Of a DNA stretch of 64,000 bases, positions 27,942-64,000 are shown piece after piece (position 1 is the first letter of the stretch; the number at the start of each line of letters is the position of its first letter). The translations under genes were made by a program, and so were the position numbers. Source of the DNA: Chloroflexota bacterium. Its GTDB lineage: Bacteria; Chloroflexota; Dehalococcoidia; GIF9; UBA5629. The DNA is taken from NCBI GenBank assembly GCA_016875875.1, contig VGOP01000003.1, forward strand, positions 98,687 to 162,686. The letters run 5' to 3'. Below the pieces are notes generated by a model. That model was not told the origin of the DNA. It saw nothing but the letters and a program-made list of their open reading frames with translations, and made no database searches.

Positions 27942-28570
27942 TGTCTATCCTCCTTATCACTTTTTTATAACTAGCTGTAATGCTTTCCGATACGAAGCTG
28001 ACACAGTTTGCTCCAATTTATGCCGAAGTGGAGGCGACTTATTAATGGCTAGCAGTTGTCCGTTGTGCCAGTGACAGCTAGATATTCTGTCATAGCCAAG
28101 ACAAAGAAGTGAACCTTGTAGAGTTGAAAGAGAGTCAGGGGCGAAAGCGTAAAAATATGAACGATTTCTGATCCAAAAATAAAACGCCACCGTTACCAGG
28201 GCGCTTTTAATATCAACGTAACTTAGTTTCAATTCGGCTCTCCTTTCCAAACATGGGAGGCGTCACCGTTTCCAGTGGCACCCTATCGGCCGATGCCCTT
28301 GGCTATTCCTTTAGGACAAAAGGCTCGGAAAGCTATTATTAAACTGGCGGCATTATAACATGAAATTTTTCAGCTTACAATTTCCCTTTTTAACTCCATA
28401 ACTGCAGGAGAGGGAGAGGCGATTTTCCCCTCCTGGATTTGAGAGACTAAGTGATGGTGCATTTTTTATAGAAATTCCAAAGTAAATACAGTGCGTCAAT
28501 CTCCATGCGATGATTGCCAAGCATTAAAGTTAGTGCTAATATTGTCGACAATATTCTTAATAGGATATTA

Positions 28571-47105: not shown

Positions 47106-49565
47106 CTACTCAGCCTTAGCCTTGTCGCCTCCCTTATCATCCCCCTGATGGACACAGGCAATTGAGACCACACTGTCATCCTGTTCCAGTCTCTTCAAAT
47201 GTACCCCTTGGGTAGCTCTGCCCTGAAGCGAAACTTCTTCATCAACAGAGATACGGATGACAATGCCCTTGGCTGAAATGATAATAACGTGCTGATTTGG
47301 AGGGACAAGGTTAGCTGCAATAACCTTGCCTGTCTTTTCATTGACTCGATGAGCAATTACCCCTTTGCCACCCCGAGAGTAGAGAGGAAAGTTCCGCACG
47401 CGGCTACGCTTGCCAAAGCCTTTCTCCGTAACCGTAAGCAGAGCAGCCTCACGAAAGATGGCACCCATCGCCACCAGACGGTCACCAGGGCCGAGCCTGA
47501 TACCACGCACTCCACCACTAGTCCGAGAGGCCGGTCGCAAGCCCTTTACAGCAAACCTGATACCTTGGCCGTTTTGAGTTACCAAAATGACTTCACCTTT
47601 TTGGGTCACTACCTCAGCCGCGACCAACTCTTCATCACCTCGAAGTTTCATGGCAATAAGCCCGCTGCTTCTGACCGAAGCAAATTTGTCAAAGCTTGTC
47701 TTCTTCACTACGCCTTTCGAAGTAGCCATAACCATAAACAAGCCGGGGGTAAAATCTTTTACCACCACCAAGGCGGTTATTTGTTCCCTTGGGTCAACAG
47801 GCACCAAGTTAGCCAGAGCTGTTCCTTTCGTCGTTCGCGATAAATCCTGGGAGATATCATAACATCTAAGCCGGTAAACCTTACCCCGATTGGTAAACAG
47901 CAGTAAATTATCATGAGTATCAGCCACCACAAGATGTTTCACCATATCAGTTTCCCGGGTGACCATTCCCGTAACGCCCACGCCTCCTCTATGCTGTTTA
48001 TGATAAGTTATAGCCGGTATTCTCTTTATGTACCCCTGTTCGCTCAGCGTAATCGCCACATCCTGATGGGGGATAAGGTCCTCGTCCTGAAATTCCTCAG
48101 CCTCTTCCCGCTTAATCGCAGTACGCCGACCATCACCATACCCCTTCTTAAGCTCGGTGACATCCTGCTTAATAAGAAAGAGTATTTTCTTCGGATTCAC
48201 CAGAAGGTCTTCGAGATAAGCGATGTTCTTTACCACCTCGCTATACTCGTCGACTATTTTCTTCTGCTCCAGCTGTGCCAACCGACGTAGCTGCATATCA
48301 AGGATGGCCTGGGCTTGAATCTGTGATAGCCCAAACTTCTCCATTAAATTGGATCGAGCTGAATCGGCGGTCTCCGCCTTTCGGATGGTCTGAATAACCT
48401 CATCCAGGCGGTCAAGGGCAATTCTGAAGCCTTCAAGAATATGGGCTCGGTCCTTCGCCTTCTGGAGGTCAAACTGGGAGCGGCGAGCAATAACCACCCG
48501 GCGAAAATCTATGTAGCAAGTCAAAGTTTCTTTAAGATTAATGACTCGAGGCTGCCCATCAACCAGAGCCAGCATGTTAATGAAGAAAGACGATTGCATA
48601 GATGTATACTTGTAGAGATTGTTGGACACTTTGATAGGTTGAGCATCCTTTCTCAGCCCTATAACTACCCTCATACCATGGCGGTCTGATTCATCGCGAA
48701 CCTCACTTATCCCCTCGATCCGCCTTTCCCTTGCCAGTTCAGCTATCCTTTCCACCAAAGCGGCTTTATTGGTCTGATAAGGAAGTTCGGTTATGACCAA
48801 TTGCTGACGTCCGCCTCTCAGGTTTTCATCGGTGACTTTAGCCCGAACCACGACCTTACCTTGTCCACTGACATAAGCGCTCTTAATACCCTGCCGGCCT
48901 AAAATAATGCCTCCGGTGGGGAAATCCGGCCCCTTCACAATCTTCATCAAATCATCGACATCAGCCTCAGGGTTATCTATAAGATAATTAATAGCGTCAC
49001 ATACCTCACTGAGGTTATGAGGCGGTATGTTGGTAGCCATACCCACAGCGATACCTGATGAGCCATTCACCAGCAGATTGGGTGATCTGGCTGGTAAAAC
49101 CGTTGGCTCCTTCAAGCTATCATCAAAATTAGGCATGAAATCAACGGTATCTTTATCAATATCAACCAGCATTTCCTCGGCAATTTTCCCCAGGCGAGCT
49201 TCGGTATAACGCATAGCGGCTGGTGGGTCATCGTCCATACTGCCAAAATTGCCCTGTCCGTCAACAAGTCTATACCTCATGGAAAAATCCTGCGCCATTC
49301 TCACCATGGCCTCATATACAGGGGCATCTCCGTGAGGATGATACTTACCAAGAACCTCACCGACTATGCGAGCGCTCTTTTTATACGAACTGGTATGCCG
49401 GAGACCCAGCCCATCCATAGCATAGAGGATTCGCCGATGTACCGGTTTCAAGCCATCGCGCACATCCGGCAGGGCTCGGGAGACTATGACACTCATGGCA
49501 TAGTCAAGGTAGGAGCTCTTCATCTCCTCTTCAATGATAACTGGCTTAACTACTCCAACTTCCAT
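47106..49565 (-). CDS. gyrA: DNA gyrase subunit A
   Basis: [40 protein letters not shown], catalytic Tyr region, C-terminal beta-pinwheel repeats. Confidence 0.95.
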
Positions 49566-49608
49566 TTAGTCATCTCCTGAAAATTCGCTCGCTTCAGGGG
49601 GTAATTAA

Positions 49609-53493: not shown

Positions 53494-53570
53494 CGGGGCG
53501 TAGCGCAGTCTGGTAGCGCGCAGCGTTCGGGACGCTGAGGTCGGAGGTTCGAACCCTCTCGCCCCGACCA
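53494..53570 (+). tRNA. tRNA-Pro (anticodon CGG)
   Basis: Acceptor stem CGGGGCG/CGCCCCG, D-arm TAGCGCAGTCTGGTAGCGC, anticodon loop TTCGGGA (CGG), T-arm GGTTCGAACCC, discriminator A and encoded CCA; 77 nt. Confidence 0.9.
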
Positions 53571-59717: not shown

Positions 59718-61652
59718 CTAGATATCCAGGTTTCTTACATTTCTGGCGTGGGCTTGGATGAACGATTTTCGTGGTGGGACTTCACTGCCCATCAACATAT
59801 GGAATATCCTGTCAGCGGATATGGCATCCTCGATTTCCACCTTGAGCAGAGTTCGTGATACCGGGTTCATGGTAGTCTCCCATAGCTGCTCAGCGCTCAT
59901 TTCTCCCAATCCTTTATAGCGCTGTATCTCCACTTTGTTACTTTTGAGCTCCTTAAGTTTGGCTTCCTTTTCCTTCTCCGAGTAAATCCAGCATAGTTCC
60001 TTTCCTGCTTGAATGCGATAGAGAGGCGGCTGGGCAATGAACAGGTGACCTTGACTTATTAGCTCTGTCATGTTGCGGTAGAAAAAGGTAAGAAGAAGCG
60101 TTCGGATGTGGGAGCCGTCGACATCAGCATCAGTCATAATGATTATGCGGTGGTAGCGCAGTCGGGAAAAGTCGAGCTGGTCACCGATGCCGGCTCCTAC
60201 CGCGGTGATAATGGCCCGGATTTCTTCATGGTCCAGAATCTTATCTTTAGGGGCCTTTTCTACATTAAGTATTTTACCTCGTAGTGGTAAGATGGCTTGG
60301 AAACGGCGGTCTCGACCCTGCTTGGCTGAACCTCCGGCTGAGTCACCCTCAACCAGGTAAAGCTCACACTCGCGAGGGTCAGTCTCTGAACAGCTAGCTA
60401 GCTTTCCGGGCAGAGTGCCGGCTTCTAATCCGCTTCTCTTGAAGATAAGGTCGCGAGCCTTTCGGGCTGCCTCTCTAGCTTTGGCCGAAATTAGGCACTT
60501 ATCTATGATTGATTTGGCATCATCGGGGTGCTGCTCCAAATACAGGGAAAGTCCATCAGCTACTATGGCTTCGACCTGGGTTTTTATTTCGGGATTGCCT
60601 AGTTTGGCTTTGGTTTGCCCCTCAAACTGGGGTTCAACGAGCTTGACACTGATGACTGATGTCAGCCCATCACGAACGTCATCACCTATCAGATTGGGAT
60701 CGGAGTCCTTTAACAGCTTGTTTTTCCGTGCATAGTCATTGAGGACACGGGTTAGTGCTGAGCGGAACCCGGTAAGATGGCTGCCGCCGTCTATGGTATT
60801 GACGCAGTTGGCAAAGCTAAGTGTAGACTCGGAAAAGCCATCGTTGTATTGAAGAGCTACTTCTACAACGGTGCTGTTCGTTATGCCGGATATGTAGACG
60901 GGCTGGCGATGGAGGACTTGCCGGTCTTTATTGAACCGACTGACAAGGCTAGCTATGCCACCTTCAAATAGGAATGTTGCCTCTTGGTCAGTTCTCTCAT
61001 CTTTGAGACTTATTTCCAGGTTCTTGTTCAAAAAGGCTAGCTCTTTTAGGCGCTGGCGGATTGTATCGAATTCATAATTAATCTCACTGAAGATTTCAGT
61101 GTCAGCCAGGAAAGTGATGGTAGTCCCCGTTTCATCGGTATCGCCGATAGTTTCTAAATCGCAGGTAGGATCACCCCGTTGATATTTTTGGCGATAGATT
61201 TTACCCTGGCGTTTGACTTCGGCATTGAGCCAGGAAGATAGGGCATTTACTACTGAAGCGCCAACACCATGCAATCCGCTGGATACTGTATAGGTGCGAC
61301 CGCCGAATTTAGCTCCGGCGTGGAGTCTGGTCATGACTGCTTCCAATGCTGAGGTGTTGGTTGCCGGGTGGACGTCCACCGGTATGCCCCGGCCATTGTC
61401 GATAACTGTTACCGAGTTGTCTTCATGAATTATTACCTCGGTTTTGTCACAGTAGCCGGCCATTGCCTCGTCTATGCTGTTGTAGACAATCTCATAGATC
61501 AGATGGTGCAGCCCATGTTCGTCAGTGCTGCCAATATACATGCCCGGGCGACGTCGCACCGCCTCCAGGCCATCGAGAATACGGATATCCTCGGCAGTAT
61601 AGTCTTCGAATGTATTGTTGGTTGTATTATTATTGTTAGCTTGTTGTGGCAT
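59718..61652 (-). CDS. gyrB: DNA gyrase subunit B
   Basis: GHKL ATPase motifs, Toprim EGDSAGGSAKQGRDR, ...PLRGKILNVEKA... Confidence 0.95.
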   Translation of the reverse strand: MPQQANNNNTTNNTFEDYTAEDIRILDGLEAVRRRPGMYIGSTDEHGLHHLIYEIVYNSIDEAMAGYCDKTEVIIHEDNSVTVIDNGRGIPVDVHPATNTSALEAVMTRLHAGAKFGGRTYTVSSGLHGVGASVVNALSSWLNAEVKRQGKIYRQKYQRGDPTCDLETIGDTDETGTTITFLADTEIFSEINYEFDTIRQRLKELAFLNKNLEISLKDERTDQEATFLFEGGIASLVSRFNKDRQVLHRQPVYISGITNSTVVEVALQYNDGFSESTLSFANCVNTIDGGSHLTGFRSALTRVLNDYARKNKLLKDSDPNLIGDDVRDGLTSVISVKLVEPQFEGQTKAKLGNPEIKTQVEAIVADGLSLYLEQHPDDAKSIIDKCLISAKAREAARKARDLIFKRSGLEAGTLPGKLASCSETDPRECELYLVEGDSAGGSAKQGRDRRFQAILPLRGKILNVEKAPKDKILDHEEIRAIITAVGAGIGDQLDFSRLRYHRIIIMTDADVDGSHIRTLLLTFFYRNMTELISQGHLFIAQPPLYRIQAGKELCWIYSEKEKEAKLKELKSNKVEIQRYKGLGEMSAEQLWETTMNPVSRTLLKVEIEDAISADRIFHMLMGSEVPPRKSFIQAHARNVRNLDI

Positions 61653-61872: not shown

Positions 61873-62157
61873 CTAATGCAAACTGTCGTGCTTGCAGGCG
61901 TTCTGGAGAAGCTTGATTATGCTTGGGCCCTTAAGGTCTGTGGAGCCGCAACTCTCGCTGTCGAAATAGCGGCACACGGTGCAGGTCACGCTGTATTTGT
62001 TTACCTCGCTTATGTTTACGAAGAGGTCACAGTTCTCAGCGCTGCGGTCATACCACTCCTCAAGGACTTCGGCGGTCTGTGGGAAGTGAGACCTGAAGCT
62101 TTTGGAGATGAAGAAGCCGTAGCCAGCGGAGTCGCTTAAGGAGAGATAAATGCGCAT
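61873..62157 (-). CDS. Small Cys-containing hypothetical protein (94 aa), last gene of a 4-gene Cys-rich operon
   Basis: ORF only; Cys at ...NCDLF..., ...CTVCRY...SESCGS...ACKHD; 14 nt after the upstream gene. Confidence 0.3.
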   Translation of the reverse strand: MRIYLSLSDSAGYGFFISKSFRSHFPQTAEVLEEWYDRSAENCDLFVNISEVNKYSVTCTVCRYFDSESCGSTDLKGPSIIKLLQNACKHDSLH

Positions 62158-62171
62158 TTGCAGCCTCTTGG

Positions 62172-62762
62172 CTATATTGAGATGTGGAACTCACACATAC
62201 CGTTCTGTGGCAGTGTCTTCGGCATCTCGATATTTATGTGGTCGCCAGTCTTCTCTGCGGCAGCCTCAAAGCAGGCGAAGCAGAATCCTTTGCAAGGAAG
62301 GCCCTTTATGCCGACCTCCTCAAGCACCTTGTGTACCGCACAGGCAGAGACCTGAAGCACCAGTTCCTTGGTAGTTGCCCTGGATATATTCCAGCGGTCG
62401 GTAGGCCTCAGGCCAAAGATGGATAGCTCTACATATCTACTCAGGCGATGGGGGAAAGAGATACCTGTCTGCTTATACACCTTCTCCACCATCTCCCCGG
62501 TGCGGTCCTGGTATTTGGTGTCAGCTAGCTCGATGGTGAGCTTCATCAACTTCTTGCCCAAATCTTCGAGGGCCTTGTATGCCTCCTTCTCGTCCTTGCC
62601 TTGCAGGCTACTGACTACAGCTCCTATATCGAACTTTTGAGTAATTTCCTCTACCAGACCTTTATCTGCATCGAAGGGAAGGACTTTCCCTGGCTCTTCC
62701 AGGGTCAGCAATCTTTCCTTTAGTATCTTGCCATATTTCCAACCAGTGGTCATTTCTTTCAT
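62172..62762 (-). CDS. Hypothetical protein (196 aa) with C-terminal Cys cluster (CKGFCFACFE...GMCEFH)
   Basis: ORF, co-oriented and closely spaced with the ferredoxin gene. Confidence 0.35.
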   Translation of the reverse strand: MKEMTTGWKYGKILKERLLTLEEPGKVLPFDADKGLVEEITQKFDIGAVVSSLQGKDEKEAYKALEDLGKKLMKLTIELADTKYQDRTGEMVEKVYKQTGISFPHRLSRYVELSIFGLRPTDRWNISRATTKELVLQVSACAVHKVLEEVGIKGLPCKGFCFACFEAAAEKTGDHINIEMPKTLPQNGMCEFHISI

Positions 62763-62770
62763 ACCTCCGT

Positions 62771-63007
62771 TCAGAAGCTCACCTGAATGGCGCTCTTGGG
62801 ACAGACACTAACGCAGTCCATGCAGCCGGTGCATTTTTCGAAGCGGACCCCGGCCACGATGAACTGACTCGGGTCCATTTCTCTAAACTTTTGGGGACCC
62901 ACCTTGGTGGCAAGGCCCAAGACATGGGTTGGGCAAATGCGGAGGCACTTATGGCAGGAAAGTGGGTCAGTGCATTTCTTGTCATCTACGGTGATTGTTG
63001 GCAGCAT
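62771..63007 (-). CDS. 2x[4Fe-4S] ferredoxin (78 aa)
   Basis: CTDPLSCHKCLRICP and CTGCMDCVSVCP motifs. Start moved to ATG (MLPTITVDD) with GAGGG SD; the track ORF extends upstream. Confidence 0.7.
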   Translation of the reverse strand: MLPTITVDDKKCTDPLSCHKCLRICPTHVLGLATKVGPQKFREMDPSQFIVAGVRFEKCTGCMDCVSVCPKSAIQVSF

Positions 63008-63030
63008 GTTTAATCCCTCTCTGTAAGGTT

Positions 63031-63861
63031 TTACCAAGCATCGGCTAGGGCGGGTAGGCTGGCCCGTTCCACCAAGGTGATGGCATCCTGGGGGCATTCA
63101 GAGACACAAAGCCCACAACCAAAGCACTGGAACGAGTCAATATAAGCTTTATTCTGGCTGGGGGAGAAGCTGAGTGCTTTGAACTGGCAGCGGTGGATGC
63201 ATGAAGCGCAGCCACTACAAAGTTCAGTATCAACACGGGCCACATGGTGCCCTTTCCATAGGACACGTACATTGTAGTCCAGTGTGGTTCTTATGAAACT
63301 ACAATCGGGATAATCGCAGTTGCAAATTCCGCCTAGGTATGGGGTACCGAAGGTAGCCAGAGTCTGCACTAAGCCCCTCTTGTTCAGCTTGGTGACGATA
63401 TCTTTGGCTTCATCAGGGGTGAGGAACTGGATTCCACCTCGGTAGGTCTCAGGCCATCGCTCCCACTTATACATCCCTGACCCCATACCTATACAGGTGA
63501 AGTTCTCCTCGTCCGCCAGACCCAGCATGGAGCGGCGGCAGGCGCAGGTCATAATGGCGATGGGATAGATGGTATCAATGACCTTAAGGACATCCTCTAG
63601 GGTCACAACCTGCCCGAAGTGTGCAGTCCAGGAAAGCTGTTCCACATCGTGCTTGACCTTGGCAATGGCCTCATGGTCATTTCTGTCTAAAGCTTCCAGG
63701 AAGTCTCGGGTCAATAAAGACATTCCTCCAGCAGCTTGTGGGCCGGGCTCGAGACCTGCGGCCTCCTCTTTTCTGATTCTATATAGCTTTCTGGCGTAAT
63801 TTGCCGGGTTGAAATACCATCTCTCATAGCCTTCGGCGTAGCGCTCACACCATACACACAT
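63031..63861 (-). CDS. Fe-S protein of unknown family with C-terminal 2x[4Fe-4S] ferredoxin-like domain and N-terminal Cys motifs (MCVWCERY..., TCACRR..., CNCDYPDC)
   Basis: C-terminal CSGCASCIHRC ... CFGCGLCVSECP; the N-terminal domain is not recognised. Confidence 0.45.
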   Translation of the reverse strand: MCVWCERYAEGYERWYFNPANYARKLYRIRKEEAAGLEPGPQAAGGMSLLTRDFLEALDRNDHEAIAKVKHDVEQLSWTAHFGQVVTLEDVLKVIDTIYPIAIMTCACRRSMLGLADEENFTCIGMGSGMYKWERWPETYRGGIQFLTPDEAKDIVTKLNKRGLVQTLATFGTPYLGGICNCDYPDCSFIRTTLDYNVRVLWKGHHVARVDTELCSGCASCIHRCQFKALSFSPSQNKAYIDSFQCFGCGLCVSECPQDAITLVERASLPALADAW

Positions 63862-64000
63862 ATTTATTGGCCTCCTTGTTTCAAACTTCGTAGCAGATAG
63901 AGGATTGTTTTTAATGGCATCACTGTAACAGTGGGGGTCGTCTACTATGTAGATAGTCTAGATTAGGCTAGGCGAAATTGTCAACTTTGACGGTGTTTCT

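Follow-up and report, generated by a model that had tools for sequence, protein, structure and literature searches.

A conserved gene trio for a cysteine-rich protein, a ferredoxin and a predicted V4R-fold protein: a candidate iron-sulfur redox module of anaerobic bacteria

Several described systems resemble parts of the locus reported here, a group of four genes (A, B, C and D) from a Chloroflexota bacterium of the class Dehalococcoidia (contig VGOP01000003.1), which lie in a 64,000-nucleotide stretch of DNA that we analysed as a whole and call the window. In the catalytic subunit of ferredoxin:thioredoxin reductase (FTR), which is small and helical, a [4Fe-4S] cluster sits next to a redox-active disulfide, and in such motifs (CPC...CPC...CHC) one cysteine belongs to the cluster and the other to the disulfide. 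FwdF, FwdG, MvhB, RnfB and the C-terminal domain of HdrA provide the best sequence and Foldseek matches for the C-terminal domain of protein A and for protein B, and the delta subunit of oxalate oxidoreductase (OOR) and domains III and V of pyruvate:ferredoxin oxidoreductase (PFOR) are also among the closest known systems that we compared. The fold relatives of protein C are the phenol- and aromatic-sensing domains (XylR_N plus V4R) of PoxR, DmpR, MopR and XylR, with just 8-12% sequence identity between C and its structural matches. In DmpR, a zinc site formed by Cys151, Glu172, Cys177 and Cys185 lies beside an enclosed phenol pocket (PMC7264223), and the HNOB, V4R and ATC-hydrolase domains have been linked to one another and have a cysteine cluster in common (PMC5847659).

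Our results show that the conserved unit of this locus is A-B-C. In a scan of one genome per species, relatives of A were found in 161 stretches; the best 80, which we describe here, come from Dehalococcoidia metagenome-assembled genomes (MAGs), many cultured Desulfosporosinus species, other Bacillota and Candidatus Abyssobacteria, and Desulfofundulus is likewise among the hosts of A-B-C. Gene order was counted in 83 loci, 81 of them on a contig long enough to show C. B directly follows A in all 83, and C directly follows B, in the order A-B-C, in 81 of the 81 informative loci, which span two phyla and Ca. Abyssobacteria. In two loci, L004 (4487-6181) and L008, which belong to sister MAGs from the same lake, A is duplicated in tandem before B-C-D as two 278-aa copies 21 nt apart, and B follows the second copy. 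The distribution of the trio across genomes is patchy. The sequence-only reading of this DNA had taken all four genes as one operon; as D is present in just 33 of the 83 loci, the unit has to be reduced to A-B-C.

The three genes are connected by fusions as well as by their order. A-B fusions occur in five metagenome loci and in P0323 and P0373, where the C-terminal part is 38% identical to full-length B, while in L078 B forms the N-terminus of C within a single open reading frame (ORF) of 294 aa. These fusions are the main evidence on this question, and because of them the data point to A, B and C working as one complex with B in the middle. B had earlier been described as an electron input ferredoxin; as it is found fused with A in some genomes and with C in one other, it is probably a bridging subunit instead. 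A more divergent set of A-like proteins, taken from 80 metagenome loci and 40-67% identical to a member that is itself 32% identical to A, gave no homologue of C. A B-like ferredoxin was found downstream of, or fused to, the A-like gene in 31 of the 68 loci with room to tell, and these loci had no other common neighbour. Since they lack C yet often carry a B-like ferredoxin, A and B are, on this comparison, the older pair and C defines the subfamily to which the window belongs.

The ferredoxin parts of A and B are ordinary. Residues 208-264 of A score above the Pfam cut-offs for Fer4 (45.5 bits, cut-off 21.1) and Fer4_21 (40.8 bits, cut-off 35); the cysteines of this domain are C215/218/221/225 and C246/249/252/256, and a conserved C-terminal tail ends in W276. 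B scores 40.5 bits against Fer4_6 (cut-off 25) and 39 bits against Fer4_7 (cut-off 27) and is a predicted 2x[4Fe-4S] ferredoxin. Its first motif, C12-x5-C18-x2-C21-x3-C25-P, is unusually spaced (Cx5C, not CxxC), and its second, C59-x2-C62-x2-C65-x3-C69-P, is canonical, with 33 residues between the two. The Fer4-type assignments made earlier for the A C-terminus and for B were thus borne out by the Pfam thresholds.

The N-terminal 205 residues of A are a different matter. They had no match in Pfam or NCBIfam, no sequence match in the PDB with either the single sequence or a profile, and no counterpart in Foldseek, where the TM-score on the query was at most 0.24: none of the family and structure libraries searched contains the domain. 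Among the PDB searches with the A N-domain and with C, one low-E match, 4wsl_A (a designed pentatricopeptide repeat protein), had no significant matched stretch and was rejected. The likeness to polyferredoxins is confined to about 60 residues. Indeed, A contains just two CxxCxxCxxxCP motifs (residues 215-256), and residues 1-205, which gave no ferredoxin match, use CxxC, CxC and CxCx4C arrangements instead of such repeats. Neither a sequence match to PFOR/OOR domain III (POR, PF01558) nor a fold match extending clearly beyond the ferredoxin domain was found. The same holds for the FTR catalytic subunit and the HdrB CCG families, which did not match A at E up to 1 in Pfam and NCBIfam, and no FTR- or HdrB-type chain matched the N-domain in the PDB sequence searches. 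The resemblance to FTR is one of analogy only: A has paired CxC motifs (TCACRR and CNCDYPDC) and further cysteines, and its N-domain is predicted to be alpha/beta, without sequence match to the FTR family.

All 16 cysteines of A are conserved. The eight in the N-domain, namely C2 and C5 (MCxxC, at the extreme N-terminus), C106 and C108 (CxC), C123, and C180, C182 and C187 (CxCx4C), are invariant in an alignment of members at 28-38% identity, and so many fixed cysteines in a domain predicted to be alpha/beta imply a chemistry of metal clusters or redox thiols. Searching 1.84 billion representative proteins with an N-domain profile gave 328 clusters, nearly all of them 260-295 aa long and hence of the same architecture as A. 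A 365-aa paralogue is 30% identical to A over residues 85-263, with the CxC...C...CxC...C core (motifs HCGCKR and CNCHYCCC) and the 2x[4Fe-4S] domain in common, and differs in its N-terminus, which is helix-turn-helix-like. It adjoins a 306-aa ParA/CbiA-type P-loop ATPase in L001 (2242-3339 and 1306-2226, respectively), about 300 nt past the position corresponding to the window's 64000 end and divergent from A, and the same pair is present in L006.

Contrary to the N-domain of A, protein C can be placed. The structural model of C (pLDDT, the predicted local distance difference test, 85) has a helical N-terminal part followed by a beta-hairpin/helix ligand-binding part, and its best structural matches are the effector-binding domains of the sigma-54 activators PoxR and DmpR. 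On the strength of this model C is assignable to the V4R/H-NOX/Bet3 fold at superfamily level. The earlier statement that the non-ferredoxin parts fit no family consequently stands for the N-terminal part of A and falls for C; no clear match to a well-characterised family emerged from the Pfam and NCBIfam scans. Below the superfamily level, similarities are faint. C scores 17.9-18.0 bits (E about 0.006) against ATC_hydrolase (PF14196) and 12.1 bits against DUF6125 (PF19620), under the gathering thresholds of 28.1 and 27 bits, and sub-threshold matches to these families occur in 20 (best E 5.8e-4) and 30 (best E 7.6e-5) of 70 C-family members, respectively. Neither C nor any of the 70 homologues matched V4R (PF02830) at E up to 0.1, and PDB sequence searches with C, as a single sequence and as a profile, returned nothing meaningful. 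By sequence C would be at most a distant relative of ATC_hydrolase and DUF6125, and it belongs to no Pfam family by threshold. It is a new, unnamed family inside a known fold superfamily.

Four cysteines of C (C138, C154, C158 and C187, spaced C-x15-C-x3-C-x28-C) are conserved and E188 is nearly invariant, while C161, a fifth cysteine within 'CFACFE', is not conserved. Together with E188, the four fall in the C-terminal part of the protein, where the zinc site of DmpR may have its counterpart. DmpR uses three cysteines and a glutamate, whereas C has four cysteines, and by analogy these probably correspond to the known metal site of the superfamily and not to a new Fe-S motif. C differs too in its setting: it stands alone and is tied to two iron-sulfur (Fe-S) proteins, whereas the V4R domain of the sigma-54 activators is part of a regulator.

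The gene neighbourhoods provide information on a possible substrate in some lineages. In Desulfosporosinus, A-B-C is accompanied by a PHP phosphoesterase upstream and by two MaoC-type hydratase subunits, an AMP-ligase, a sigma-54 activator, an enoyl-CoA (coenzyme A) hydratase, a 4-hydroxybutyryl-CoA-dehydratase/HpaB-family protein, acyl-CoA dehydrogenases and a thiolase. L084 carries on one strand an ABC transporter, two MaoC proteins, an enoyl-CoA hydratase, A-B-C, an NMO-family protein, two acyl-CoA dehydrogenases, a ligase and a sigma-54 activator. In L086 and L087, A-B-C is followed by PHP, whose start overlaps the stop of C, and then by two family III CoA-transferases, and a second Dehalococcoidia clade has paired CoA-transferases, DUF3786, A-B-C-(PHP)-D and SCP2 proteins. 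For loci of 8 kb or more, and taking MaoC hydratase pairs, enoyl-CoA hydratase, acyl-CoA dehydrogenases, AMP-ligase, family III CoA-transferase pairs, thiolase and SCP2 as CoA-type families, we observed such neighbours in 22 of 26 Firmicutes-type loci and 14 of 26 other Dehalococcoidia loci, and in none of the 16 control loci, which hold A-like proteins without C. The window's own clade keeps the order A-B-C-D-gyrB-nadD-obg, with rpsL/rpsG/EF-G upstream, and offers no informative neighbour. The location next to gyrB, to which the sequence-only reading had drawn attention, is real; it is kept only in this clade and says nothing on function.

Two further families recur beside the trio. In three separate lineages a PHP plus PHP_C phosphoesterase of about 215 aa adjoins A-B-C; its gene precedes the trio in Desulfosporosinus and follows it elsewhere (L002 9770-10408, L022 9700-10332, L055 7331-8017 and L086 3453-4097, among others). 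PHP is absent from the window, where the sole weak tblastn match (49275-49601, plus strand) is antisense within gyrA and spurious. A DUF3786 protein (E 2.7e-50 to PF12654) lies directly upstream of A in nine Dehalococcoidia loci (L022 6332-6937, L023, L028, L034, L036 and others); no functional literature on DUF3786 was found.

These observations support the description of the locus as a soluble cysteine-rich redox module. We tentatively propose, with somewhat less than even confidence, that A-B-C is a soluble cytoplasmic Fe-S oxidoreductase that links the cysteine-rich site of A to the ligand pocket of C. Judging from cysteine conservation, the N-domain of A would contain two additional Fe-S clusters, or else a single cluster together with redox-active cysteines; its C-terminal 2x[4Fe-4S] domain would act as a relay, and B as a second such relay that bridges A to C. 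In C, four cysteines would bind a metal next to a pocket like those in which its structural relatives hold small hydrophobic ligands. Electrons may then pass between the N-domain of A and the ligand of C by way of four ferredoxin-type clusters, of which A and B have two each. Complex formation is here deduced from the fusions and synteny, and we likewise infer the metal in C and the direction of electron flow. Because of the CoA-type neighbourhoods in other lineages, all outside the window's clade, the likeliest substrate class would be a hydrophobic carboxylic acid or its CoA thioester. A bolder version is that A founds a new class of Fe-S enzyme, in which the invariant MCxxC, CxC, C and CxCx4C cysteines build a catalytic [4Fe-4S] centre flanked by redox-active thiols, on a logic like that of FTR. 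Four ferredoxin-type clusters would feed this centre, and with a V4R-fold subunit to bind the substrate, the enzyme of these strict anaerobes (Chloroflexota and Firmicutes) would reduce, at low potential, a metabolite that is hydrophobic or linked to CoA, at a disulfide, a persulfide, a thioester or a C-X bond. By analogy such an enzyme is conceivable, and we regard it as distinctly unlikely.

Several points weigh against a soluble oxidoreductase of this kind. CoA-type neighbours occur in 0 of 14 loci of the window's own clade, defined by its A-B-C-D-gyrB synteny, and the substrate inference is therefore borrowed from other lineages, among which many Desulfosporosinus loci are phylogenetically non-independent. 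A single case of the B-C fusion was found, on a metagenome-assembled contig. The proteins that share the fold of C serve as sensors, carriers or scaffolds and include no enzymes, and the metal in C may, as in DmpR, be a purely structural zinc. Finally, literature searches found no experimental paper on any member of the trio.

Some of the same evidence could be explained if A-B(-C) were an electron-transfer adaptor, non-catalytic, which wires the ferredoxin pool to separate partner enzymes such as the nearby acyl-CoA dehydrogenases and hydratase/dehydratases, with C serving to dock. Most of the recognisable content of the module is indeed ferredoxin-type clusters, the A+B pair occurs without C in many other contexts, and in L084 and Desulfosporosinus the trio lies between acyl-CoA dehydrogenases and hydratases, that is, enzymes that need electron partners. 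Yet a conserved alpha/beta domain of about 200 residues with eight invariant non-ferredoxin cysteines exceeds the needs of a wire, and the window's clade keeps the trio with no candidate partner enzyme nearby, so that we consider an adaptor unlikely, though worth keeping in mind. The structural matches of C to effector-binding domains raise another prospect, in which C senses small molecules as a stand-alone V4R-type protein while A-B signal the redox state, the three together modulating a regulator such as the neighbouring sigma-54 activators. V4R domains act as sensors in CorR (PMC6557876), and a sigma-54 activator is found near the trio in 16 of the first 83 loci as well as in L084. Neither such an activator nor any other regulator is linked to the trio in the window's clade, however; six or more Fe-S clusters would be heavy equipment for sensing, and no DNA-binding or output domain was detected in any of the four proteins with Pfam and NCBIfam. 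A sensor is thus improbable.

The housekeeping surroundings in the window's clade, from rpsL to obg, would sit well with a role in metallocofactor biogenesis or in reductive repair, that is, with cofactor or Fe-S maturation and not catabolism. The pairing of the 365-aa paralogue of A with a ParA/CbiA-type ATPase in L001 and L006 and the DUF3786 gene upstream of A could be read in the same way. On the other hand, no known maturation-family domain was found in A-D with Pfam and NCBIfam, the catabolic-operon context in other lineages favours a metabolic role, and so patchy a distribution is unlike that of a universal core maturation system. Of the explanations considered we give this one very little credence, and the soluble oxidoreductase, tentative as it is, remains the one that we prefer.

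All four genes are real coding genes under purifying selection. The four minus-strand ORFs are present as first read, together with the motifs MCVWCERY, TCACRR, CNCDYPDC and CKGFCFACFE...GMCEFH. We computed the ratio of nonsynonymous to synonymous substitution rates (dN/dS) for the window genes against 15 related loci and obtained 0.04-0.14 for A, 0.05-0.16 for B, 0.08-0.23 for C and 0.10-0.33 for D; substitutions fall mostly at third codon positions, and the two results together exclude the possibility that the small ORFs are non-coding. The region over A-D is identical to the Lake Tanganyika metagenome contig Ga0194113_10010787, and the nearest genome relatives of the window are Chloroflexota/Dehalococcoidia MAGs. 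A Shine-Dalgarno-like sequence precedes each gene. In C, GGAGGT lies 2 nt ahead of the first ATG and 11 nt ahead of the second (62753); since this spacing fits the second ATG, and since homologues of C and the Joint Genome Institute (JGI) gene call are 193 aa long, the start of C is most likely the second ATG. With this start, the gaps between the genes are 23, 17 and 14 nt, in agreement with the 14-23 nt noted earlier, and the B-C gap is 8 nt for the longer version. No terminator-like site was found between the genes. A consensus scan gave four promoter-like sites in the region, compared with 2.3 expected by chance. A-D contain no transmembrane-like segment, the highest Kyte-Doolittle 19-residue mean being 1.34. 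Coordinates are collected in Table 1.

Table 1. Positions, in the window, of the genes, domains and signals of the A-B-C-D locus
Feature	Coordinates	Strand	Description
Gene A	63031..63861	minus	276-aa ORF
A N-domain, residues 1-205	63247..63861	minus	undescribed cysteine-rich domain, predicted alpha/beta
A C-terminal domain, residues 206-276 + stop	63031..63246	minus	2x[4Fe-4S] ferredoxin domain
Gene B	62771..63007	minus	78 aa; internal start within a 108-aa ORF
Gene C	62172..62753	minus	193 aa; 62172..62762 gives 196 aa with the ATG at 62762
Gene D	61873..62157	minus	94-aa ORF
gyrB	59718..61652	minus	downstream of A-B-C-D
Shine-Dalgarno sequence of A, AAGGAGG	63871..63877	minus	9 nt before the ATG; read directly from the sequence
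Promoter-like site upstream of A, TTGACA-18 nt-TAGACT	63955..63984	minus	consensus scan, 10/12 matches; consensus match only

Protein D is, from its sequence and distribution, a lineage-specific small cysteine-rich addition to the trio. Its homologues are 53-85% identical to it, and all come from Dehalococcoidia whose A is at least about 64% identical to that of the window. The cysteines C43, C59, C62 and C70 are conserved, as are the motifs DR.A..C..F.NISEV..YS.TCT.C..F....C and LL.....HD, and no family in Pfam or NCBIfam matched. Other small proteins are found at this place. In the second Dehalococcoidia clade an 81-aa cysteine-rich protein (MHEPFxPxCxxCxxFxxCF...WGYC...DDGC) follows C or PHP (L038 10357-10659, L039, L042, L046, L051, L052 and L054), and in Desulfosporosinus a 78-aa histidine-rich protein occupies the position of D; no similarity of D to either was detected.

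Elsewhere in the window, gyrA (47106-49565, minus strand) lies about 10 kb from gyrB on the same strand, with a tRNA-Pro(CGG) gene (53494-53570, plus strand) between them. A Moco (molybdenum/tungsten cofactor) riboswitch is found at 28224-28342 on the minus strand, as a full-length match of 70.7 bits against a gathering score of 36.

In many anoxic sediments and aquifers Dehalococcoidia and related anaerobes predominate, yet a large share of their redox metabolism has still to be assigned; such genomes often encode uncharacterised Fe-S proteins. The public names of the trio proteins are generic, inconsistent or wrong ('ATP-binding protein', 'PreA subunit', 'RnfB', 'histone H3/H4'). The module described here has a signature that crosses phyla, made of a 16-cysteine protein, a dedicated bridging ferredoxin and a subunit with a predicted ligand-binding fold, and its cultured hosts, the Desulfosporosinus species, make it experimentally tractable. 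Were it an adaptor only, it would still be of use for annotation. If it is catalytic, it would be a new type of Fe-S enzyme and would give the V4R/H-NOX fold, otherwise known from sensors, carriers and scaffolds, its first enzymatic partner.

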